A stretch of DNA of 64,000 nt from Spironucleus salmonicida (taxonomy: Eukaryota): contig NC_090600.1 in the NCBI RefSeq assembly GCF_000497125.1, positions 1,447,197 to 1,511,196 of the forward strand. Direction: 5' to 3'. A model generated the notes under the pieces. The model was not told where the DNA came from, made no database searches, and saw only the letters and a list, made by a program, of their open reading frames with translations. Numbering within the stretch: position 1 is the first letter of the stretch; every line of letters begins with the position of its first letter. Of the stretch, positions 19,918 to 59,096 are shown piece after piece. A program made the translations under genes and the position numbers.

Positions 19918-20285
19918 GAGTATTTTATGTTAATATATGTATTTCATCATGGAATTTATTTTACAAATGAGTTTTACCTAGTTTATTATGTTATAGTTTA
20001 AGTTAAAATATATATTAATTAGTGTTTCCATTCAAATGGTAATTGCAAGTTTTTTAGTAGATTAAAATTACAACATGAGTGATTAGGTTGGTGTTTTATA
20101 ATGCAGCTGAGGAACCAATTCAAATGTAATTAATATAACTAATTTTATACAAATATTATATTTTAGTAATATTGTTTATATATTAAAAATTAATAATCAA
20201 AGTTAGGGAGAAACAAATATTAAATTTTAAATATATAATTTTTATAGTTACCCTTTCATTTTCATTCCTCCATTCCATTAAGACT

Positions 20286-22202
<1,917 letters not shown>

Positions 22203-23408
22203 TCACTCTTGTTTACACTTTTTAGCCAAAATTCGCCCTTACTCAAACAGATAGTTAAGTTGTTCATCATTTGCCTTACACTTGAATTAAAAACCACCTT
22301 TGTCATAAACTTCACATTTGCAGTTTTCAAGCTAAAGAACTATCTCGTTTAGTGCCTTCCAATTCCAGCCTCCGTTAACAAATCCGTATGCAAGTTTTCC
22401 CTTAAGAAGTGTGAGACCACGCAAATAACCTAAAGCTCCGTCGATAAGTGGCATCATTCCACTATTGAACGTTGGAGATGCCACACAAATTCCTGCTGCA
22501 TCATAGGAATGGAGGGCGATTTGAGTGAGGTTTGTGGCTTTGACATTAGCTAATACAACTTAGAAATTCATGCTTCTAACTCCTTCTGCAAAAGATTTAA
22601 CTGCTTTTGCTGTGTTTCCATACATTGTGTCATAAATAATCAAAATTTTATCTTTTATATGCGTTCTATTCGCATATGCATTATACTCTTCTAACGGATA
22701 TTTTATAAACTCATTACGCCAAGATAGCCCATGTGCTGTTAAAAGATATGAAACTTTGAGGTTTTTCAATGAATCTATACATTTACGAATAGGTCCTGGA
22801 AATGGTCCTAAAATGTTAGCTATGTATTCACGCAATAAGTGCATAACTCGAGTTAACGGGAGTTCATCCGCCCATCGGTCACACGATGCTATATGTTAAC
22901 CAAACCCATCATTTGTGAATATAATTTCGTCGTATGCTGAATATGTCCACATAGATTCTGGCCAATGTAACATTGTTTAAGGAATGAATTTTAATATTCT
23001 TTTACCTATTACTAATTCTGAACGTGCATCAATTATCTGAAAATCTTAATGTTAAATTGTTGGATACATTTTAATGAGGTAATCTTTACATTTCTAATTA
23101 CAAACTATTGTTGCATTTTAAAGATAAGGTACTAAAATAGGAAGTGCAGATGTATGATCACCTTCTGCATGATTAATAACAAGATATTTTATAGCATCTA
23201 ATGGAACTATTTATTCAATACGTGTAATTTATTCCATGCTAAAAGGAGCTTTCACCGAATCAATAATTGTAGGAAACTAATCTAAAATTAAGTATGAGTT
23301 ATATGACGAACCCTCTGCAGTATCATAACCATGAAATTTACGTACCGACCAGTCTGTAGCTCCTACAAAATAAATATCTGGAAGCATTTAGTTTGTTGAA
23401 GTCTTCAT
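22203..23408 (-). CDS. fprA: Flavodiiron protein (A-type flavoprotein, O2/NO reductase)
   Basis: [31 protein letters not shown] and AHG in the metallo-beta-lactamase domain, then flavodoxin YDTMYGNT and ASPT. Confidence 0.95.
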
Positions 23409-39945: not shown

Positions 39946-41307
39946 TCAGACTGTAATTTGCATTATTTTAGCGGATGCATCACCAGCATAACTAAAGTTT
40001 CCGATGTCTTCTACCATATCATGCTTTTTTGCTTCAGAGATAATTTTACCAAAATGGTCTAAAAATTATTTACTGATAGATTCGTAGTCAGTATTGCTTT
40101 AAAATACAAAGAAGATAGTTCTAATATTTGAATTAATCATTTTTGAAAATTCTACGCCAACTGCAGCGATAACTTATGGGCTACAGATTGCGATTTCTTA
40201 AGAAAATACATGATATCTAGTTTCTAACTGACTAAAATTAAGTCTAAAAACAGGGACATTACAATATAAATCCATAGATTAGTGCATCGTATCAATTTAA
40301 GTTTTTTACGTATATCTATGGATTCCCCAAGTAGTTGCAGCTACCAAAGCCTTGAAATCATCTGCAGGATTAGGAGTTAAAAACATATAGTCTGCAAAGG
40401 TCTTTCCTTAATATAACTAGTTAGCTGCAACTCTACTCATAGTGTCCTACTAATTTTAACTAATAATTAAACCTCCTTCAACATAATAGTATGTGTTCTC
40501 TAAAGAAGTACATGTTGGCTTTTAGGATAAAATTTTCATTTCTCTGAGCCACTTGTCAGGGAAACAGAAATATCCATAAGTAAGCTCTTTTTTACGCATT
40601 TGTATTCCAATGCCACAATCTATATTAGACCATTTCTTATTAATAAGTACACAGTTGAATATCTAAGTGAATTTTTCTTATTACATTGCTTTTGCAGAAA
40701 TACAAGTTACTTCGAGCATGTTACATAAGTAATGGAATGCTTTTGCAATTCCAAATATAGTTCCAAGCCCAGTAGATAAGCAACACCTAGAACAGGTTGA
40801 AGTATTCTAATCATTAACAAACGTAACGGTTCCAACTACAGTTTCGTAAATAACCTTTGCCTTTGCCCAATCAGAATTCATACCAGCAGTTGTCTTAATC
40901 CCTCTAATTATAGCATCAATTTTAGCATTATGATGTATAAAATCAGTAACTGGCATTAATGATACTTAAACTCCTGTTAGTTTACCATTTGTTAATTTTT
41001 AAATTAAGCCATGATAAACTAATTCTGGAAAATCAAGATCTAACGCCATTAATACTTGAGAACCTTCTTCTTTAGTAATTGCTTCAGATAAAGTACATAC
41101 ATCTTTATTCTCTTTTATGGTCTTAGCAATTTAAAATACTATTTACTATAGCTTTTATGATAACTACAATGTATTATATCTTAAATGATCTGGAACATTA
41201 CCAATAGAGAATACTTTTGATTCTGCGAATGGATATTTCTAAGGTGCAGAAGCAACAAGTTAAGGTGGTGAAATTTAATAAGGTGCAGCAGAGGCTAGAG
41301 GATTCAT
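39946..41307 (-). CDS. Transglutaminase-like superfamily protein (catalytic Cys/His apparently lost)
   Basis: LDFPEL, then GLGTIFGIAKAFHYLCNMLEVTC and QIFNCVLINKKWSNIDC follow the TGc core pattern. Confidence 0.7.
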
Positions 41308-41437
41308 TTTTAACTTTTGAGCAAATAATTTTATACAATATATAATAAATATTTTATGATGTAAAAATAGAAGTACGGTAGTGAATTATATTAATTAAAT
41401 GTAAAAATAATTTACTTGAACCACAATCGTATGCCAA

Positions 41438-42991
41438 TCAATCCTCATTAAATAAATCTTCAATTTAGTTTCCAATATTCATTATTTATCCTATTTCAGA
41501 TTAAAAGTTTTCACCTGAGCGCAATGGACCTACCTAGCTTAGTAAAGGATTTACTTTGCTTCTTAAAATTTGCTATATATCTTATTTTTCTATCGTCTTG
41601 AACGGAGTATAATTAAGGCCAGTTAGGGCATGCTAAACGGTATTAGAATACAAAAATTATTGTTATTAGATTTTATTATTATATAAATCTTCTTATATTG
41701 GAAATTCAAATTCATATTCCATTGGAAGACCTTTTTAATTAATAAATTATTCGTAGCTGATAAAATCTTCTAACTAACTACCTTTAATAATACTAAGATC
41801 TCCAAAAACATACCCACCTTATTTTAAACTTATCCATTTACTATCCTAACTTTAGGAAATTTAAACTAGCTGATGTCCTATAAGTTTTTTAATTTTTTAA
41901 TTGCTTATTCCGAAAATAGCTAAAAATGCATGTCCATTCTTTAAATAATTGACATTTTCTTAAGTTAAGTTCATATTTAATCCAACTGAAAAATTGATTT
42001 CAGATACTTAAATATTTTTACTTTTAGTAACAGGAAACGATTTTGAAGTAATTTATTTCTAATCATTTTTAAGGAAATTTCTATTTTGAAATCCTATTAA
42101 AGCTTGCATTTTAGAGTCTGGTTAAAGTGAAAAATTAACATAAATTTATGTAAATTCTTCATCTGATTTGAATGCGAGTTAGGAAATTCTTAAAATAATC
42201 TAAACCAATCCCACTTTTCTAAAATTTTCCATATCATTTAATACAATAATTTTTTAATCCTCAGTTTATACATTGAAATCTGAAGCGTTTGGTTTTAAAG
42301 CCTAGTATTGCTTAATAAGCGTATTGTTTTTATTAATAATGTTTTATTAAAATTCAATCAAATTTTAACCACCTGCAAATAAAATACATTCCAACTACCC
42401 TATAATAAGCCCACCTTGCGTCATAGAGTCTTGTTTATTAGCTTTAATTGAAATATGATACTTTTCTACAACGGAGATAGTTTTTCTAGAATATTTTCTT
42501 TTGTTTTATTCTGTTAATATCATATCATTCAATTAAATTTTAGTTAATATAGGAGCAGTCCCAATTATATATGATTCTCCTTAATCTTATACTTGCAATT
42601 ATGCAGATATCTACTAGATCTCTTAAAAATCAAATAATAATGTAGGATCATCAGTTTGTGTATATGGAGGTTAACATAAACAAATTTTAACATTGTCTAT
42701 AGAATTTGTAGGAGAAAGTGTAACCAAATTATCTGAATAACTAAATTAAGTAATAGCTAAAAGGCATAGAAATGGTACATCTTAATTAGGGATAACTAAA
42801 ACCTTTTACTTCTATAAGTAAATTGGATCTATTTATTATTATTTTGGTACCAATGGTTTTTATTACGAATAAATAGTTTAATTAGTTGCAGCCTATGGAA
42901 CTATTTACTACTAACTATCTTCTGATTGTGAAAGCCTTTATTTTAAAGCCTGCGCCCGCTCCATAATCTTTTTTACAGATTATGTCGACAT
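41438..42991 (-). CDS. Hypothetical protein, possible DENN-like (DENND6/Avl9-type) Rab GEF
   Basis: 517 aa. LVTLSPT....V..CL..PPY..DP.L.F and YIIGT.P resemble DENN core segments. Weak evidence. Confidence 0.5.
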
Positions 42992-43313: not shown

Positions 43314-43386
43314 TACCTGTTCTAGGAATCGAACCAAGGACCGACAGAACTTCAGTCTGACGCTCTACCATCTGAGCTAAACAGGC
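43314..43386 (-). tRNA. tRNA-Phe (GAA)
   Basis: GCCTGTTTAGCTCAGATGGTAGAGCGTCAGACTGAAGTTCTGTCGGTCCTTGGTTCGATTCCTAGAACAGGTA has an acceptor stem, D-loop GG, anticodon GAA and GTTCGA T-loop. Confidence 0.96.
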
Positions 43387-43471: not shown

Positions 43472-44800
43472 ATGCGCTAAACTAAATTCGTAAAACCTTC
43501 AGAAATACAATTATCCTAATCACTAGAAAAACCACTAAAATAACCACTAAATAAATAAGATACAGTTTTAACTAATGGAGTACCGAATTTTTATAGATAT
43601 TATTCAAAGTAGCAACCGTAAGCCTTTGAAAATTTGATATTCAGTGTAGCAAAGCAACTTCTAGATGGAAAATCTGAGATTACTATAGAATATATTGATA
43701 AATAAAGTATTTAGATACTTATTGATGTTCTTAATTTAGATTTTCCTGAACTGTTACCTTTTACATTATAAACTTATATATTGTAAGGAGAATTTATTAA
43801 AACTTTAGTTTTCTAAAGACCTAATAAATCTGATACATAAAATTATTAAAAATAAATAGAGTCTATAGTCGAATCTTTAATACAACCATTATTAATTCTA
43901 ACTTCTGACTATGATAAATTTCATCATATTTTTAATCTATTAACTTAGTTTTAATGTGCAAATTCTGATAATATTGAATATAATTCAATATTGTGTTTAT
44001 TATCTAAAAAAGCTACCCCGTTAGGAATTTCTAAGGCATTTACTTATTTGTCAAATAAATTAAATATATTTTCAATTGTTAATAAAGCTAAAATAGGCAA
44101 TTGTATCCATTATTTTAATACAATCTTTTAAAATAATTCTTTTTCTAACGTAGATTGTTACATACCAGCATAAACATTATATACTTGTATTAGCTAGTCC
44201 TATTTTTCATTTTCTGACGATTGCATATAGAATATGGCTCTAGCATATAACAAACCTGAATGTTTATCAAATTACTATAATCCTCTTTTTATTTCAGGGT
44301 ATACACCATCTACCGCTTTAGAACTAGGTAAAATAATAGCTAAATCAGTTGATAAGCAATATATTGATATATTTTTAGATCCTAAAGGTAATAAATTAGA
44401 AGATATTCTAATATCAGGATAGTGGTGTAGTAAACGTTACACTGATGCCAAAATAAATATTATGGGACTTAAATTTGATGAATTAAATATTAAGCACTCC
44501 ATTCGATTATATATTTCGCAAGGTGACAATTATTATAGTTTTCCATATGAAATTTCATAGATCAATAATAATGTTATAGAGGAGCTCTAGTAATCTTTTA
44601 TAAAAGTATTCGAATAAAAGTATTATGGTATGTTCATTATTATAGATTTTCATTCAGACTATGAATCAGTAAAAGGTAAAATTCTTTCTGAATTAGGCAA
44701 AATATTTTAAAGCATAAAGAAACTAGGTATATATAAAGATATGGACTAAATTAATTATAGTGGTAATAGTTCTGCATCAGTATTTCTAATTAAATGTTGA
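43472..44800 (+). CDS. Transglutaminase-like superfamily protein, paralog of 39946-41307
   Basis: LDFPEL, KATPLGISKAFTYL and HYFNTIFLNNSFSNVDC. The C-terminus YSGNSSA resembles YAGDASA of the paralog. Confidence 0.7.
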
Positions 44801-48608: not shown

Positions 48609-51600
48609 TCATTACCACTTTGACGTCCCAAAGCTGCTTTGAGATCTCTTGGACTTCCCTTTTTCTCCCAACTGCACACAAACTAACTTTGGCATTTCCA
48701 TAAAACATGAAAGTTTGGCATTGTCTCTAGTTGGAGAGTAAACCTTAGATTTTTCAAGCTAATCTAATCTCTTCTGTTCTTCCACTTCCCAAAATTTTTG
48801 CCATTTTTCTACTTTAATTTGTACAAATGCCTATTTTTCGATGATCTACTGCTGTCTTGAAATCTCTGCTTCTATGTTCTGCTGCTGGAGTTCCTGCTCG
48901 GCTAAAAATTCTGTTTCTCGCTGTAATTAGTATTTTTCTCGCGTCAATCTCGCAATACCCTCTCGCTCTAGTTTCTTAAGTTCCTCTTCTTGAGCTATTT
49001 TCTATAGTGCTTGCTCTCTTGATTTTTGGAGTTTGACCTGTGTCTTTTCAAAATCTTTAGCAAGCTTTTCTCTACGTTATTTAAGATTTTCTTCAAAAAT
49101 CTCATTTTACTCAGGGTTTAGATCGTCTTATATAGACTTGTTTGAAACTGTGTTGAATTTTCTAGTTCTAAGTGGTCTATTGTCGGTTTTAATTTCACGA
49201 ATTGTTGTATATCTTAGTTATTTTTGCTTAGCTTCATTTTCCTTTGCTATACGGTCATTTTCAATCTCTATTAGTTTAATTCTGCGCTGTTCTTCTTTGA
49301 GGTCATTTTGCAGTAGTTATTAGTGTATCTTTTTCTCCTCTAAACGTTGAGTTCTTTCACTTTTTCGTTTTTCTAGTTCTTCCATTTCAGCTTTTCTTCT
49401 AATATTTTCTTAAATCTGCGCCTCTTTTTTAATTAAATTTTGCCTTTCAATTTTTTATAAAATTTCCTATCTTTTTTTTTCTTTTGCTAACTTTTCTTAT
49501 TCTTAGAGTTCTTGTGCTTATGCTCTAGCAATCTACTGTTAGATTTAATCTGACTTTTATTTTACAATTTATTGCTATTTTTTATCTTCTAATTATTTTT
49601 CTTTAACGTTCTTTCTGAATAATAGTTCTTATTAATATCTAGCTACAAATTCCTCCTCCTCCATCTACTGTTTTATTTTTTGTTCTTGCTCGTATTTCAG
49701 TCTTTCTTTCTACTTTTAATCTAACATTTTTCTTTTTTCTTCTAGCTATTCTTTTTCCTTTAATCTAGAAGCCAGTTAAACTTACATTTAATCAGTAAGA
49801 TATTCTTTTGCCTTTAATTTAATTTTAAGAGCATGTAAATGTTATACATCTTTTTCTAATTCTTTCTCAACTATTGTTTCGATATCACTATCAGATAATG
49901 CTTTTTTCTGAGTTTCGTCAATTGTAATCTTCAATAGCGATTTTTCATTATTATTTTTTATCTTGTCAATTAAATTAACCTTCTTAGTAGATAATTCTTC
50001 TTCCTTTTATATAACTAATTTTCTAAGCTATTCTAAAGTAATTTAGTCAGTTTCTCTAGCTTCTTAAAATTTTCTAAGTCTCTCATCACTTTGGATTGCT
50101 TTTTAATCTTTTACATATTGTTATTATTGATTAATCAATTCTTGGTCGACTTATGGTTTCGAAGGTTCCTGTTTAGGCTCTTATTTGATATGATCTACTT
50201 GGATCTGTTATATTTTCGTTTATTCTAAAGGTTTTGGCTCTTTTATAAATACCAATTTTCCTGTCTCTTTTTTCTTATTTTTAGAATCTTTACCTTCGGC
50301 CTATTATTGACTTATACTAGTATTTTCTATTAATTGTTTTCTAGCAGCGTCTTCTCTTAACTTTTTCTATCTCGCTATTTCTTGTTGGACAATTAATTTT
50401 TACTTTTCTTTAATCTTATCCCTTTCTTGCTCCAATTTATTCTTTAAATTTTACGCATCTTAGTCTTTCGTTTATTGAATCAATTATTATTTGTTTAACT
50501 CTTCTTATTTTAGAAGATTTTTTTCTTCTTCATTTAATTTAAGAAGTTCAAACTATTTCTATTTTTTCTACTAGGAAATCTCTTATTTTTTAATTTCCTA
50601 TTTTAATTTTTCTTCTTAAAGTTTATCATAATCTAGTTTATCCTTCTATTTTTACATTAGTTCTTTTTCTTTTTACAATTATATTACTGCTGATTCTTGG
50701 ATCTCTTTTTCTACTTTCTATTTTTCATCCAATAAATTCATACCATTAATGTAAAACTACTATCCAAAAGCATCAAACTAAATTTTCCCATCAGCAATAT
50801 TTAATTCAATACTATGCTAAATAACAGCAAAAGGTTGAAATTTATAAAGGTATAATATTTTTGGTAGATCAACTAATTCCCAAGTTTGGCATCCTTTGAT
50901 CATTAATCGCTTTAATAATGATTTTTCACCATATACTTGATCTTAATCTAGTTTTTCAAAGCTTATACCAATATACTCACTGCTAGTTGTAGAAATTCCA
51001 AATTTTAATGATAATTTATAATCATTTATTTCACATTTGGTTACAAAAACAAAAAGATTTACAGTTCCTTTGTAGTTTTAAAGTTATTGAGCATTTTACA
51101 TAATATTTATATCTAGCTATGTTTCCTCAAACGGTTATTAAAAATGCTTCTTAAGTTAATTCAATGCCACTTGCTTAACTTATGGCACCGTAAACTCAGC
51201 TCCGTTAAAAGATAAGGGTTTGGAGTCTAATGATTATTTCATTATCCAAATAAGCTTACCTGGTAGTTCTAGATTTATATTAAATTTAAAAGGTCTTGAA
51301 ATGTTGCATGATGATTAAAAAATTTAAATATTTTCATTTAAGAACATAAAATTTACATGTACTTAAGTTGCTTTTATTGGGAAATATGCTGTATAATTAA
51401 GCCCTTCTGTTGTAGTAGCTTAAGTTTTAAACTGTACATTAAAAAAGGATGATAAGTCTGAAAGATATGGTGATGTTTTTGGAGATATAGTGAAATTTGA
51501 AGTAAATGTAAGGCATGGTTAATTTTGTTTTTATATAAGCTTAGTCTCACCAATTCGTTAAGTCGCTGAAGTAACATAAACCTGCACTTTATTATAAGTA

Positions 51601-51704
51601 ATAGTTAAATTCTATAATGGAGTTAGTACATTAGATGAATAAGCTTTGTATGTGTCAAATTCAGCAAAATATGGTTGTTCTTATTCTAACTAAAACGAAT
51701 TCAT
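48609..51704 (-). CDS. Large protein with globular N-terminus and long charged coiled coil
   Basis: About 1031 aa. The C-terminal two thirds are E/K/Q/R-rich heptads. Confidence 0.75.
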
Positions 51705-51838
51705 TTTTGCAAAATTACCTAAGATATAGTATTATTTATTATTTAACATAAATTAAAAACATTTATTGTCCTTTCTTATGTACTAATTTAAAGCAATAAT
51801 TGATAAAATATGAACTGATTAAAAAATTTCTTACTGTG

Positions 51839-52745
51839 CGTTCAGAATTAATGGCAGAATAGGCAGTAATCTTTAATGACATGTGGCAGCATTGGGTTAT
51901 AAGCAATGACGAGGCATATATCAAAACTATTTGGAAAACGTCACAACATTAGTTTACACCATAACAATAAAAAATGATTAAACTACTATTTGATTCAAAG
52001 TTAATGTGATAATAAAAATCATACGATGGGCTGCGCTAAAACATAATCGCAATCAAAATCTTTTTCAATGTCACCTTTAACCTTAAGATGATGTTATTAC
52101 TCTACCCATACGAAAAAATAAAAATTTTACCCCTTAGCTTTCATTTCTATCCCATTTACGCCTTCGATTGCCAAATAACCTGAGATTAATTATTACAATA
52201 AATGATCAAAAACACCAGATGGGTTCTCTTTTGCCTAGAATTTAAGACGACGTATTCCTGTATTTTATGCATCTTCAGTTAACGGCTTAATTCCATTTTT
52301 AAAAATTGATACTCCTTATATTTTCAATGAAGCAATATTAATATACCTATAAATTTGTAAAAAGTCTTCAATATTGTCAGTATCTACTATTTATACAAAA
52401 GAATCTGTGTAGTTCATATTGTCAGTTTGCGGAATTTATAACCGAAGAGTTAACATGTCGTCCAGCGTCATTTAATAGAAAAGGTTGAATCTTTTGTTTT
52501 AAGTATATATTAATAAATATATTTTTAAATGAAAATAATTATAGATAGACTAGAATGCGATTTACCTAATCAGCCTAATTCTGACATGCTTATAACAATG
52601 AAAAATGTATTAATGTCTCTTAAAACATAAAGTAATATTGCCTTAGAATTTGAATCAGATTAATATAAAAATTTGGTCATTCTCTCAGTCATCGTTTCAT
52701 ATATTTCCAAGTTAAAGCAAATCTAGGAGTTAGTAATGTCGCATA
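51839..52745. repeat. Direct repeat copy 1 (about 0.9 kb; offset 2712 bp to copy 2)
   Basis: 51844-52745 reads identical to 54556-55457 in the lines compared. A further cgtt match lies just upstream. Confidence 0.95.
52019..52471 (-). CDS. Divergent eIF4E-family protein, copy 1
   Basis: 150 aa. NYTDSF.....DNIEDFLQIY, SIFKNGIKPLTEDAQN, VNGI and FVWV match the eIF4E fold pattern. Confidence 0.75.
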
Positions 52746-54721
52746 TCAATATATATTAACGTGTCTGTTTAACAATACTTGATAGGGATGATATATATTT
52801 TGTATAATCTTCAGTTTATTATTAACATATATTTGATATAGAAAAATTTGTTATTATAGAAAAATTTTTGGAGCTTAAATAAGTTACTATCATTATAACT
52901 ACTAAATTAACGTAGTCCGTCAAGTAATTATCGTAAGATATTAAAAAACTTGGAGTTAAAAATATACCTACAATTTCACTTATATCTAGGCAAAATCTAT
53001 GTTTTTAAACACTGAAAACTAATCTTCTGGATGTGGAAGATTCTCTAGATATTTATTGTAGTTACCTTGTAAAAAATTAATTATGTCAATATAAATCAGA
53101 TAAGCATATTTTATTATAAAAAGATAATTACTCTCGATAGTGTAAATCTTAGATATAGGATATTGATGAATTAGTATAGTTTACTAGAGAAAAATAAATA
53201 TGCCCGTATTATTTTAATCAAAGCTACTTAGAATAAGCAGACATTATTTTCTGCACTTATAAATATTTTTTTGATGAAAGAATTCCGAATATTGCAAAAT
53301 AAAAGTAGATTGTACTAATTATTAATGAATAAAATGATTTTATTTAAACGTGTTGCGACTAGTATAATTTTTAACTTAATATTAAAGATATTTAAAAACT
53401 TATTATAGCAATTAAATAAATTTTAAAAAATGAATATCTACCTATTGTATAATTATTTTAAAATATAATTAAAGTTTAAAGTAAGTTTGTAGATATTTTT
53501 TAATAATCTATTGTTGATGCAAAACTATTTTTTGAACATATCAATTATCCAGTTGATCAAAAAATCATATAATCATTTAAGAACGATAAAAACTTTTACC
53601 TCAATAACAATTTTTACAAGGTGTTAGTGATAAGTCAATTCCCAAAGGACGAACAAGTGTATTTTAAAATTTTAAATTAATCTGGTTAATTAATCATCAC
53701 TTTAGTAGATTCAAAACACGTAATGAAACCGTTTGTAGGTAAATATGCTTCAATTATATTACTATCAGCTAGTTTATAAAAATAACAATTTTTAGAATAT
53801 AATTTTTCAACAACATTCTCAAGTTTAATATATGTTAAAGTTAAATCAAAAAATATCAATATAGTAGAAAAAGTTAATGATTACTTATTAGACGGATCAT
53901 TTTAATATTCGTCTACACCTTGTTATTTAAAACATATATAACTTGTAGTATAATATTTTATTCTGAAGTAATAAAGCAAAGGTTTTGTAATATTCGTTCC
54001 GAGTTACAAATTTTTATCTAACATTACATCATTTATCGAGAAGCTTTAAAAATTTTATACTTTTAATTTGATTATAGATTCAGCAGTAAGTAAGTTTGAC
54101 GAATTAGTTTAATAGTTTCAATACAGTAGTTCACAATAATAAACTATTTTGCTAACAGTATTTAGTGGAAAATTTTAATAAGGAGTATTTTTGGATTTTT
54201 CTTTTGTTTAATTAATTTTATTGGTATCTATCCCGTTTCTACCTATACATGAATTTTAAATTTAAGAAAAAATGAAATATTATGGAGACAGCGGAACATA
54301 CTGGTATCACTGGTAAGCATTTAGTAAACTATAGTAAATTTTTTTTAGAGCATCAGATCAGGTATCCATATTTTTAGTTGACTAACGATACTAACAAATG
54401 AAAACATTGTTAAAAACTCGTTATATACATGTAGTTACATCGTCTATAGTATTTTAAAATACCGATTAATAAATATAATAAACAACATGTTAATCAATAA
54501 ATTTAATTAATACTAAGTAGATGATGATCTAAAAAATTTAATTAAAGAAACGTTTAGAATTAATGGCAGAATAGGCAGTAATCTTTAATGACATGTGGCA
54601 GCATTGGGTTATAAGCAATGACGAGGCATATATCAAAACTATTTGGAAAACGTCACAACATTAGTTTACACCATAACAATAAAAAATGATTAAACTACTA
54701 TTTGATTCAAAGTTAATGTGA
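52529..54721 (+). CDS. XPD/Rad3/DinG-family Fe-S helicase-like protein with degenerate ATPase motifs
   Basis: 730 aa. LISRQNLC, DIDELV......CPYY, ADIIFCTYKYFFD, IILLSASL, GFVIFVPSY, VFSGKFQQG, SIPF and FLVDQRY. Walker A region reads LEFESDQYKN and Walker B reads IINEQND. Confidence 0.85.
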
Positions 54722-54730
54722 TAATAAAAA

Positions 54731-55183
54731 TCATACGATGGGCTGCGCTAAAACATAATCGCAATCAAAATCTTTTTCAATGTCACCTTTAACCTTAAGA
54801 TGATGTTATTACTCTACCCATACGAAAAAATAAAAATTTTACCCCTTAGCTTTCATTTCTATCCCATTTACGCCTTCGATTGCCAAATAACCTGAGATTA
54901 ATTATTACAATAAATGATCAAAAACACCAGATGGGTTCTCTTTTGCCTAGAATTTAAGACGACGTATTCCTGTATTTTATGCATCTTCAGTTAACGGCTT
55001 AATTCCATTTTTAAAAATTGATACTCCTTATATTTTCAATGAAGCAATATTAATATACCTATAAATTTGTAAAAAGTCTTCAATATTGTCAGTATCTACT
55101 ATTTATACAAAAGAATCTGTGTAGTTCATATTGTCAGTTTGCGGAATTTATAACCGAAGAGTTAACATGTCGTCCAGCGTCAT
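54731..55183 (-). CDS. Divergent eIF4E-family protein, copy 2
   Basis: Same sequence as 52019-52471 at +2712. Confidence 0.75.
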
Positions 55184-55240
55184 TTAATAGAAAAGGTTGA
55201 ATCTTTTGTTTTAAGTATATATTAATAAATATATTTTTAA

Positions 55241-55457
55241 ATGAAAATAATTATAGATAGACTAGAATGCGATTTACCTAATCAGCCTAATTCTGACATG
55301 CTTATAACAATGAAAAATGTATTAATGTCTCTTAAAACATAAAGTAATATTGCCTTAGAATTTGAATCAGATTAATATAAAAATTTGGTCATTCTCTCAG
55401 TCATCGTTTCATATATTTCCAAGTTAAAGCAAATCTAGGAGTTAGTAATGTCGCATA
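55241..55457 (+). pseudogene. 5' fragment (about 72 codons) of XPD-like helicase
   Basis: Duplicate of 52529-52745. Homology stops at 55457. Confidence 0.8.
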
Positions 55458-55508
55458 CAAAATTAAATGAATACTTATGTTTAGTTAAAATTCAATCAAT
55501 ATAAACAT

Positions 55509-56258
55509 TCATTAACCAATGCTGTTAATATCTATATCTAGAATAATTCCATAAAGTCCAATAAAGTATAAACACTATATTAATTTATTATTTTACCATT
55601 CCACCGTAATTTTCCTTATACAACTTCCTGATACGACACCAAGCGAATATAAATCCCAGTATTCTTCTAACTTATGAGTTTATCCAAATTCAATCTACGG
55701 TAAAGTTAATTCTTATCCATCACATTGAGTGATATTAATATTAAAATATTTTGGAGCATTAACTCTATTATTTATTGGATGACCGATAATTAAATATCTT
55801 AAATATCCTGGATAAAGCAAAATCTATGTTTGACCATATTCGACAGTTGGATAACAAGACTCATAACTTTTAACATTAATTAGTGTCGGATTCCTATATT
55901 AACCTCTTGCCTATTTCTTTGTATATTTAACAGCTCTGTTTAATAACTGAAGATTATCAACTATATAATCTATTGAATCTGCACTTATTGTATTCAAAGA
56001 TTTAAACTTAATATGTGCTCTTTGCTATTGCATCTGAGTAGGTAGAAATATTTAATCATATTATATATCCATTTAAGGATGTAATACATAAATTAAGCTA
56101 AAAAGTGTTATGCAAAAGAATAGAAGATTTTACACTAAGTAATTTTTTTAAGTTTATTAAACTTATTCGGGATTATATTCATACGAAGACAGTATCAATT
56201 CAATTTCAGAGAGTTATCTAGAATCATTTAGATTCATTATTTAATAATCTGTATTCAT
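55509..56258 (-). CDS. Candidate SUN-domain membrane protein
   Basis: N-terminal TM (LLFFCITLFSLIYVL), then SCY, IIGHP....NAPKYF.I and I.VEW.N....CLYFIGLYG resembling SUN (CW.F / EH...SAPK.F / SNWG...CLYRFRVHG). Confidence 0.6.
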
Positions 56259-56704
56259 ATTATATATAAAACTTCAAATTTATAATTATTACGCAACTTA
56301 CACAAGCTACAAACTCATAAATTTTGTCGTTTAAGATAATTGGATTGCTAAATTTAATTTATAATGTAAACTTGAGTTGCAAAATACAATAAAATTCAAT
56401 TATGAGTAAGTTAAATATGTATATAGTTCTATGTTATAATTTCAATAAGAAATTAATAAAAATAACTTTTAGGGATACTATAAAGCTTTTATAAATACTA
56501 TTTAGTTTAAATAAAGATCTTCTAAGTTTCATTATACTAGTAGTAGAATTTAATGAGGATCATATTCTTTAATTATATAAAGATGTACTCAATAGTCATG
56601 CACTATCCACTAATTCTATTGTCATAGACTGAGTTTATGGAAAACCATTCAATTAAATATGTACATTTAATTATATTAATAAAGTCTTATCTAAAAAATC
56701 CTAA

Positions 56705-57046
56705 TCATTTCTTTTTCAAACCAAGATCTTTCGATACACATGCTGCTTTCATAGCATCATTTGGCGTAAATCCTCCGTCACGGACGCATTTCATGCGTAG
56801 TTTATGCCCTGATCCCTTCATATGTTGCTACAAATTATGGTCAGATATAAAGTGCTAGTCACAGAATATGCAATAATTTTTACCCTCACCTGGTAAAAAT
56901 GGATCTGGTGCTTTATTCTCAATTGCTTCTAACTACTCAGGTGTTAATCTTTCTAATACTTAGTCTGGCATTAACTTAGCAGTATCATGTTTACGATTGT
57001 ATTTGGTCTTTGAACGAGAATGATTCTTTCCACGTGTAGTTGCCAT
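56705..57046 (-). CDS. BUD20: Bud20/ZNF593 zinc-finger 60S ribosome export factor
   Basis: DQV...L, DPFLPGEGKNYCIFCDQHF......QH.KG..HK.RMK and FT..DA..AA. Confidence 0.9.
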
Positions 57047-57116
57047 TTTAAAGTGTTATATGGAAAGAAAGAAATTAATTAATTAATGAATATATGTTAA
57101 ATATACTATAAATAAA

Positions 57117-59096
57117 ATGAATAAAGCATAATCAAACATAATTTTTAGTTTGTTGTTTAATGATGAATAATTTACAATATTACCAAGCCTAGTAAAATTA
57201 GATAACTATTTATAATTGCTATTTATTAAAAAATCACTATCAGATATTCTACCTAACCCTCCATAAATATATAACCCGAACATTCTTTAATGTTTCCCAC
57301 TTACTGAAAATGTAGAACTAGTAACTGAAATATATAATATTATATTTTAATAATTTCTAATAAGGAAAACTATGAATCAAGATATCATATGCTATAAAAA
57401 TTTAGCAAAGTTATTTGATTTAGTTCATTTTTTAAAGATATAAGATAATAACTCAACAATTACATCTTAAATTGAATCATATACTTCATAATATTTAGAT
57501 GTTGTGCTTTTTGCTAGCAATACTTGCTAACGTATCGATGAAATTTATGAAAAAATTCTATATTTGACTGAAAATTTTAGTGTTGATAAATGTTAAAAAT
57601 AATTAAATATTTGCAGAAAATCTCAATAAAAGATAGATAATAAATACGAACTAGATACTTTTCTGACAATATCTAAAGAATGCATGAAATAATATAAATT
57701 AATTTTCAGAGATTATATTTTATAAAACTAAAAAGATAAAAACTATCATTGTGATATCTTGGTTACAACTAAATAATTTTCGATTACAAATTCTAGTATA
57801 CAATCAGTTTATACAGCAAAATCTATGTCAATCAAAACATACAAAGAAGAAATTTAAAATTAGATTTTAGATACGATGTAGACCTTTTTACAAATTTTTA
57901 ATTACTACTAAATTATAAATTTCTAGCAGTTTATTCCAATTTTAAAGAAGTAACTAAAGGGAGTATCACTACCTAAAATATTATTCATGAAGTATAAAAT
58001 CAACACAAGAGTCATCAAAAAATCGCTCGATGCTGATATATAAATTTTATCTAAAATTGCACAAATTCAAGAAAAAGCAGCATTTCAAATGATGTTACCA
58101 TTAAATAAAGATCTTATAACTATTTTTGGCCTCGAAACTAGTCCAAAAAACTGGATCAAATATCTTTAAAATATAAAAAAATTAATGGATTAAAAATACT
58201 TAAACCTCTCAAATTTTATTTTTTAAGCATAAAAAATCGAGGAATAATAGCGACTAGAAAGTGATATGATAAAAAGCTTTTTCGGTACTTCTTTGATTCG
58301 TGATGATATCCAAGCTACAGTTCGGAAGTACTTTTATTCTTACGAGCAATCGTTTGGTGTTGGACAAATTGAACGATTTCTTCCATAATCTAGAAACTTC
58401 CAATAACTTGATTTCAACCATATAAAGCTACTCTGTCAGGAGGCTGGCTTTAGAAATTTTGCAGAGTTCATTCAAAATGAGCTTGAATTGGCCCTTTTGG
58501 AGAAGTTTTAAGAATTTGGGTTTTCAGTAAGATTGAGAGACTTGCAAGGTATTTAAAGTGGGGTTGATATACAGGTTGTTTTTATTGCTTTAATTGATAA
58601 ATAATTCGGTGATTCCGCGCTACTGATGGAAACTTTACTAGCATTTAATTTAAAAACATTCTATAACTTAATTTTTTAAAATTTGCTTTTTAATAAGTCG
58701 TATAATACACTGAGTTTTGTATTCTAAGACTTAAATAACACTAATGTGACGTACCTGAACCGTTATACAAGCTTGGAAATTCTTTAAAAGTTGAGTAGAT
58801 TTGTACGGGCTTCTCCATGTCTATAGTAGTACTCAGTATTGTTTTTAGCTGAAAATATAAGCAGAAAGCTTATTTTGGATCTCATTAATGGGCTTTTCGA
58901 AGGATAGGATTATATGAAAATAGAAGTTAAAAATGAAAAAATTAAGAATAGGTTAATATTTTACTATTAGAAATATGATAAACTAGATGATCTCTATAGA
59001 GAGATGTTTGAATACTTAAAGTGTCTTATGATGACTTAAATCGATATAGACTTGAGTTGCAAAGTTAGTTATCTAAACTTCATAGGAAATGAGTGA
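57117..59096 (+). CDS. Hypothetical alpha-helical protein
   Basis: 659-aa table-6 ORF with the stop in GAGTGA. Family not recognised. Confidence 0.7.

Follow-up and report, generated by a model that had tools for sequence, protein, structure and literature searches.

A near-identical 907-bp direct repeat shared by eIF4E-like and helicase-like genes in Spironucleus salmonicida

Layout of the repeat locus

We analysed a stretch of 64,000 nucleotides of the Spironucleus salmonicida genome (hereafter the window; NCBI RefSeq assembly GCF_000497125.1, contig NC_090600.1, positions 1,447,197 to 1,511,196 of the forward strand; coordinates below are those of the window), in which a helicase-like gene is overlapped at either end by one copy of a 907-bp direct repeat, each copy carrying an eIF4E-like gene. 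The GC content of the window is 0.22–0.39 per 2 kb. It holds nearly no long open reading frames (ORFs) under genetic-code table 11, and long ORFs are dense under table 6, in which TAA and TAG encode glutamine. By the description of the genetic-code table, code 6 is used by Hexamita-group diplomonads.

Comparison of the whole 64-kb window with itself (E < 1e-5) returned a single self-match, between 51839–52745 and 54551–55457. The two copies are identical at 906 of 907 positions (99.89% over 907 by blastn) and are offset by 2,712 bp. The sole mismatch is C at 51843 against T at 54555, and the identity is exact over 902 bp from 51844 to 52745 (partner 54556–55457). A match of this kind is far beyond chance. 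Both borders of the repeat end abruptly, as seen from the list of mismatches; a scan per 50 nt, which reached the left border only, showed identity dropping there to background (0.16–0.44 per 50 nt). The copies are AT-rich, with a GC content of ~0.27–0.31.

From left to right, the repeat contains ~170 bp with a 52-codon ORF on the (+) strand (ORF T), the eIF4E-like gene of 150 amino acids (aa) on the (−) strand, a 57-bp spacer, and codons 1–72 of the helicase-like gene plus 1 nt. The stops of ORF T and the eIF4E-like gene are 9 bp apart. The helicase-like gene begins in the first copy and ends in the second, which encodes its codons 675–730 and the stop. The unit is fully packed (2,193 + 9 + 453 + 57 = 2,712 bp), and the block formed by the two copies and the segment between them measures 3,619 bp, or 1.33 units. 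The features are listed below, with the neighbouring genes last.

51839–52745: first repeat copy (R1), putatively the original; its right end is continuous with the helicase body
51842–52009 (+): segment like the helicase tail, read in code 6
51851–52009 (+): ORF T in R1, 52 codons, ATG to TGA; the same as helicase residues 679–730 in the second copy (54563–54721)
52019–52471 (−): eIF4E-like gene, copy 1, 150 aa (Pfam IF4E, E = 4.6e-14)
52472–52528: divergent spacer, 57 bp, GC 0.12, presumed bidirectional promoter; duplicated at 55184–55240
52529–54721 (+): XPD/Rad3-family helicase-like gene, 730 aa; residues 675–730 lie within the second repeat copy
54551–55457: second repeat copy (R2), putatively the new one; exact part 54556–55457 (902 bp)
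54551–54554: possible 4-nt junction microhomology, CGTT
54731–55183 (−): eIF4E-like gene, copy 2, identical 150 aa
55241–55732 (+): helicase 5′ fragment, a 163-codon ORF (72 helicase codons followed by unrelated sequence)
55468–55470 (+): TGA, putative former stop of the helicase-like gene
48609–51704 (−): left neighbour, coiled-coil-like gene, 1,031 aa
55509–56258 (−): right neighbour, 249-aa ORF convergent with the helicase-like gene; its stop is 51 bp to the right of R2

This layout agrees with a preliminary description of the locus, made from the sequence alone, as a head-to-tail cassette of about 1.33 units with a period of 2,712 bp; self-comparison confirmed both the repeat and its offset. 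The gene order given there (helicase tail, eIF4E (−), helicase (+), eIF4E (−), helicase 5′ fragment) is the one read under code 6. The last 56 and first 72 helicase codons, said to lie together in the 0.9-kb repeat, were located there as codons 675–730 and 1–72, and the two eIF4E-like genes described as identical do encode the same 150 residues, with IF4E scoring above the Pfam cut-off.

Proteins encoded by the repeated unit

The 730-aa protein matched the Pfam domains DEAD_2 and Helicase_C_2 with 80.2 and 72.6 bits, respectively. A Foldseek search with its AlphaFold2 (AF2) model (pLDDT 77.8, pTM 0.77) matched XPD, Rad3 and DinG structures, the best being XPD (E = 3.6e-27, TMq 0.63), and the Fe–S cysteines C158, C177, C186 and C225 were invariant across 15 sequences. 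By contrast with these retained features, the Walker A motif has lost G44 and G46 and kept K47, DEAHN is replaced by NEQND, and SRTH is replaced by TTKL. The protein is therefore best called 'helicase-like', a member of the XPD/Rad3 family with degenerate ATPase motifs and a putative activity. An earlier label, 'pseudo-helicase', is fair at the level of sequence, given the replaced Walker-A glycines, SRTH and DEAH.

Searching 1.84 billion representative sequences returned 1,373 relatives at E ≤ 1e-3 and none at E ≤ 1e-30, and the full-length relatives listed were ~20–31% identical, suggesting that the helicase-like protein is without close relatives. Among the relatives, P0010 (852 aa, Gln-rich) likewise carries an insertion behind the Walker-A helix and has a Walker A that is degenerate in part (QTGFGKT). 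It is a candidate for the closest true ortholog from a different organism that uses code 6.

The eIF4E-like protein scored 52.9 bits against Pfam IF4E, for which the cut-off is 28.7. Compared with eIF4E chains of solved structure in the PDB, its WED motif reads TED, with threonine for tryptophan, and its DFW motif reads DFL, with leucine for tryptophan. The roles of both tryptophans are known from the eIF4E literature, that of WED being the cap-stacking residue. Because both are replaced, cap binding by this protein appears uncertain. Apart from itself, its only database relative was P0005 (UniRef; 'Eukaryotic initiation factor 4E-like protein, Spironucleus salmonicida'). The two sequences agree in full up to residue 47, after which P0005 diverges by small, frameshift-like indels, in the manner of an earlier, error-prone model of this gene. 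A ciliate origin of the window, which code 6 and the gene density might suggest, was rejected, as this nearest named relative comes from S. salmonicida, a diplomonad parasite of fish, and a flavodiiron-type protein is encoded in the window. A literature search on eIF4E and Spironucleus found no paper on this locus, judged by titles.

The second copy of the eIF4E-like gene was duplicated together with its flanks, 274 bp upstream (including the whole 57-bp spacer) and about 175–180 bp downstream. The spacer is presumed from its position to act as a bidirectional promoter. Since each copy has the whole spacer together with upstream and downstream flank, both copies are probably expressed, and the second presumably doubles the dosage of the gene.

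Origin of the repeat

The junction between R1 and the helicase body is native, because helicase residues 1–72 align with the N termini of relatives, including the degenerate Walker-A region, and AF2 places them at the start of motor domain 1, in its first strands and helices (pLDDT 81–96). These residues are a bona fide XPD-type N terminus. The right junction of R2, on the other hand, is new, because its 72 helicase codons enter sequence that scores as non-coding (−0.077) and nothing resembling a helicase body is seen beyond them. The ORF of this 5′ fragment had no Pfam match. When the helicase body was compared by tblastx and blastn with the 4 kb downstream and 4.8 kb upstream, no decayed similarity was found beyond the repeat borders, with only short, scattered hits (best E ~0.01). 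This result argues for a young event and against old paralogs that have been homogenised.

Deleting 54556–55457 from the sequence yields a helicase-like protein of 679 aa, in which the frame continues for five further codons (Arg-Phe-Lys-Ile-Lys) to the TGA at 55468–55470. A stop fell within that distance at 8.2% of 17,430 sampled positions (chance 0.082). Between this TGA and the stop of the convergent 249-aa gene lie 38 bp, a usual distance in the window. We also compared C-terminal lengths among the 39 alignable sequences of the top 40 relatives. The 679-aa form has 59 residues after the invariant R620, and 20 of the 39 relatives have ≤75; the present form has 110, and only one relative falls within the range 95–125.

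The composition of the present tail (residues 675–730) is foreign to the rest of the gene. Its GC content is 0.31, equal to that of the eIF4E-like gene, compared with 0.227 ± 0.034 (maximum 0.292) in helicase codons 1–674, where none of 89 windows of equal size was as high. Pfam gave nothing for the tail at E ≤ 10. Of the 150 relatives listed, only P0006, which is the tail itself, had its best stretch beyond query residue 659. Against the C termini of these 150 relatives, the best local score of the tail was 40, and shuffled sequences gave 40.5 ± 3.4. MAFFT aligned the tail to C-terminal extensions of P0115 and P0010; as shuffles score equally (58 of 100 reached 40), we rejected the tail as a conserved helicase C-terminal domain. 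Pfam did not find an HHD domain in P0115 or P0010. With TGA as the only stop, chance alone would leave 56 codons open to read-through in 47% of cases.

Together, these observations make it probable, in our judgement, that a very recent segmental duplication within one chromosome of this code-6 diplomonad produced the locus, placing ~0.9 kb at a distance of 2,712 bp downstream and fusing the helicase-like gene to ORF T. The ancestral order would have been the coiled-coil-like gene (−), ORF T (+), the eIF4E-like gene (−), the 57-bp spacer, the helicase-like gene (+, ~679 aa) and the 249-aa gene (−). The segment comprising ORF T, the eIF4E-like gene, the spacer and helicase codons 1–72 would then have been copied and placed five codons before the helicase stop. 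As a consequence, the helicase frame would run into ORF T and gain a new C terminus of 54–56 residues, lengthening the protein by 51 residues, and an orphan helicase 5′ fragment with a copied spacer would point into the 3′ end of the 249-aa gene.

The 4-nt microhomology would likely have primed either a templated insertion as a break was repaired or a (double) template switch in replication; an equivalent route would be a tandem duplication of 2,712 bp followed by loss of the second helicase body. Templated insertion, template switching and tandem duplication with loss are all known mechanisms. Like products of templated insertion and template switching, the locus has blunt borders, homology of 0–4 nt and no transposon hallmarks, and it would contain a copy of nearby sequence placed at a break. 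It differs in that the mechanism is read here from junction anatomy only, and the CGTT match could be due to chance. Neither target-site duplications nor terminal inverted repeats emerged when the flanks and termini of the repeat were compared (7 of 30 terminal matches).

The mismatch 5 nt from the left border allows two readings of the junction: a 902-bp copy joined at a CGTT microhomology, or a 907-bp copy with a substitution beside the junction. Either is a coincidence of ~1% if unaided by mechanism, by simple arithmetic and, for CGTT, an estimate from base composition. The junction is thus not fixed to the nucleotide, and the former ending of five codons follows only if it lies at 54555/54556.

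Several points weigh against a duplication that captured foreign sequence. If the junction instead lies at 54550/54551, the former ORF runs for 57 codons; such an ORF, passing through non-coding-like sequence and overlapping the convergent gene, is the less likely of the two. The tail scores as coding in the helicase frame (0.083, compared with 0.109 ± 0.070; 36th percentile of 231 in-frame windows), this frame is the best of six for the tail, and 26 of 1,155 off-frame windows reach its score. ORF T has a coding score of 0.068, which was reached by 3 of 70 spurious ORFs of 45–70 codons, the fairer null. AF2 models the tail as helices (pLDDT ~75–84), with one helix, 653–695, spanning residue 675. 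The duplication also needs both a left breakpoint 7–12 nt before the ATG of ORF T and an in-frame fusion (1 in 3). Finally, its direction and its reality are read from internal evidence of one locus in one assembly.

The tail, being coding-like in the helicase frame, probably represents a small ORF that was captured, with ORF T a small coding ORF in its own right, now or recently, and the 730-aa helicase model probably includes this fused ORF. ORF T is also present as a separate 52-aa predicted protein (P0006) on the same contig. A search for independent gene models from the older annotation returned only this 52-aa ORF and none for the helicase C terminus. The ATG context of ORF T resembles real starts and is not discriminating, the best Protein Atlas score for the 52-aa ORF (0.75) was below the tool's stated noise level, and inspection downstream of stop codons gave no clear shared motif. 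We set aside the AF2 model as a test of the tail's origin, as a helical tail fits a captured small protein or a native one alike. On the question, raised by the preliminary description, of whether the 56 codons are the native C terminus, there is evidence on both sides: no listed relative shares the tail, yet it is coding-like in the helicase frame.

An assembly artefact, or a structure found on only some of the homologous chromosomes, has a slim chance of accounting for the repeat. The perfect 902-bp identity is as expected from a mis-join or a duplicated consensus, and the frameshift-like indels of P0005 after residue 47 show that this region has been troublesome before. However, both outer junctions are clean, and the segment enclosed by the two copies is unique. 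The usual artefact of long-read libraries is an inverted duplication rather than a direct one, which also counts against this explanation. If the sequence comes from the long-read assembly of PMC9509377, for which PacBio reads had an N50 of 14.6 kb at 161x, reads were long enough to span the 3.6-kb structure, and single reads would span it several times over.

It is quite improbable that the helicase-like protein is native at 730 aa and that 51844–55457 is a 1.33-mer of a two-gene unit, derived from a circle or from an array of at least 3 units trimmed at both ends and inserted between the coiled-coil-like and 249-aa genes. Such an insertion would account directly for the coding-like score of the tail in the helicase frame, the best of its six, and it would fit the modelling of the tail as confident helices continuous with the preceding helix. 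The unit is also fully packed at 2,712 bp, and removing the block leaves a plausible 186-bp spacer between two same-strand genes. However, this explanation needs a circular or multi-unit precursor, or at least three events, where the segmental duplication needs one. It is at odds with a tail whose GC content exceeds that of all 89 helicase-body windows and which has no homology to any relative searched, and the in-frame stop five codons past the junction becomes a coincidence of ~8%. In the homolog-search listings, the helicase-like, eIF4E-like and 52-aa proteins are each on one contig only. Pfam found no replication-initiator domain, the repeat has neither target-site duplications nor terminal inverted repeats, and no decayed remnants of the unit were found in the flanks.

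The stronger claim, that the 2,712-bp unit constitutes, or once constituted, a self-contained module, circular or amplifiable in tandem, with the 1.33-mer as its integration footprint and the 56-residue tail as the true C terminus, is slightly less probable still. Of the three origins offered in the preliminary description, the recent duplication that replaced the helicase C terminus is the one we favour; integration of a circular or rolling-circle DNA and a collapsed array gained no support, and no evidence supports a circular, rolling-circle or decayed-array origin. The same description had noted that recombination between the repeats would excise a 2,712-bp circle with both genes. This is topologically correct, but it is true of any direct repeats and does not itself speak for an amplifiable module.

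We give very little credence to an old tandem pair of paralogs in which gene conversion has homogenised the central 0.9 kb. Zero substitutions over 902 bp could mean continuing conversion, but there is no nucleotide or translated similarity past either border, and the sequence after the 5′ fragment scores as non-coding.

Other candidates were rejected. A transposon or Helitron-like element was one of them, since the repeat shows neither target-site duplications nor terminal inverted repeats and carries no mobility gene, the only Pfam families among the proteins of the unit being IF4E, DEAD_2 and Helicase_C_2. Rolling-circle (Helitron-like) elements encode a replication-initiator endonuclease and a Pif1-type helicase; the helicase here is of XPD/Rad3 type and degenerate, and Pfam detected no initiator domain. 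A remnant of a tandem array was rejected because 1.33 units is not a whole number and the flanks have no similarity to the unique segment.

Neighbourhood, context and consequences

The coiled-coil-like gene to the left is dominated by a long Lys/Glu/Gln-rich region, and its product had no Pfam match. Its likely start is the ATG at 51704, in an A-rich context 135–140 bp to the left of R1; an upstream extension of the ORF reaches 51917, within the repeat, and scores as non-coding (0.007). To the right, the 249-aa ORF has a coding score of 0.077 and no Pfam match. The orphan fragment at 55241–55732 (+) runs antisense across the last ~220 bp of this gene and could create new convergent transcription. 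No RNA gene was found as cargo of the repeat, with no Rfam match at E ≤ 1 in 50500–57500, and Tandem Repeats Finder found no tandem repeats at periods of ≤500 bp, the 2,712-bp unit being beyond the tool's range.

Elsewhere in the window, two paralogous genes without a Pfam family, at 39946–41448 (−) and 43472–44800 (+), are 28% identical over 435 residues (E = 1e-38). They are divergent, with a third gene and the only tRNA gene of the window, tRNA-Phe (GAA) at 43314–43386 (−), between them, and represent an older local duplication, unlike the young 907-bp repeat. A flavodiiron-type protein encoded at 22203–23408 (−), with an ODP metallo-beta-lactamase fold and a flavodoxin domain, is typical of anaerobic protists; the stop of its gene abuts that of the convergent ORF at 20124–22202 (+), with 0 bp between. 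A small protein encoded at 56705–57046 (−) carries a C2H2 zinc finger of the JAZ type, which binds double-stranded RNA (E = 4.9e-6), and the likely start of its gene is the ATG at 57046, in an A-rich context, rather than that of the longer ORF from 57283.

Duplicates of ≥2 kb with ≥95% identity, most commonly containing one gene, make up 19.2% of the S. salmonicida genome; only four introns and A-rich start contexts are also reported, and the duplicated regions have a mean GC content of 44.7% (PMC9509377). The repeat resembles the single-gene duplications of that survey in having near-identical intrachromosomal copies, mostly of one gene, in a compact genome with short spacers (PMC9509377). 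It differs in its length of 0.9 kb, below the 2-kb threshold, in being AT-rich, in involving no multigene surface-protein family and in its predicted chimeric frame.

The best-documented use of direct repeats for circular amplification is in Leishmania. As in Leishmania, genes between direct repeats could recombine out as circles or expand. The Leishmania repeats are reportedly dispersed families found genome-wide, with observed amplicons (PMC4028189), whereas we found one fresh repeat pair and no evidence of a circle. The locus differs in this respect from a system of that kind. To our knowledge, no direct-repeat amplification system is known in diplomonads. The birth of chimeric genes through duplication and read-through is a general phenomenon, and the helicase-like gene would share with such genes a junction that fuses a gene in frame to neighbouring sequence, predicted here to give a new C terminus.

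The 2,712-bp circle released by recombination between the repeats would carry the 730-aa helicase gene intact, along with one eIF4E-like gene. Of the helicase-like gene, the chromosome would keep only the 5′ fragment, which means loss of the gene and no return to the ancestral state. Unequal exchange could expand the unit, a generic property of direct repeats. The helicase-like gene is at risk because such recombination would delete its body, and population data could show whether this degenerate gene is still under selection. For annotation, the locus advises caution about the 730-aa helicase model and about duplications of <2 kb, which went uncounted in the published survey (PMC9509377).

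Most likely, then, this is an ordinary young segmental duplication with gene fusion as a by-product, in a genome known to be rich in single-gene duplicates. Its importance is modest and lies in a clean, datable, single-step origin of gene copies and chimeric frames in a compact protist genome: one step would have yielded a second copy of a divergent eIF4E-like gene, a C terminus captured by the helicase-like gene, and an orphan, promoter-bearing 5′ fragment that points at the neighbouring gene.

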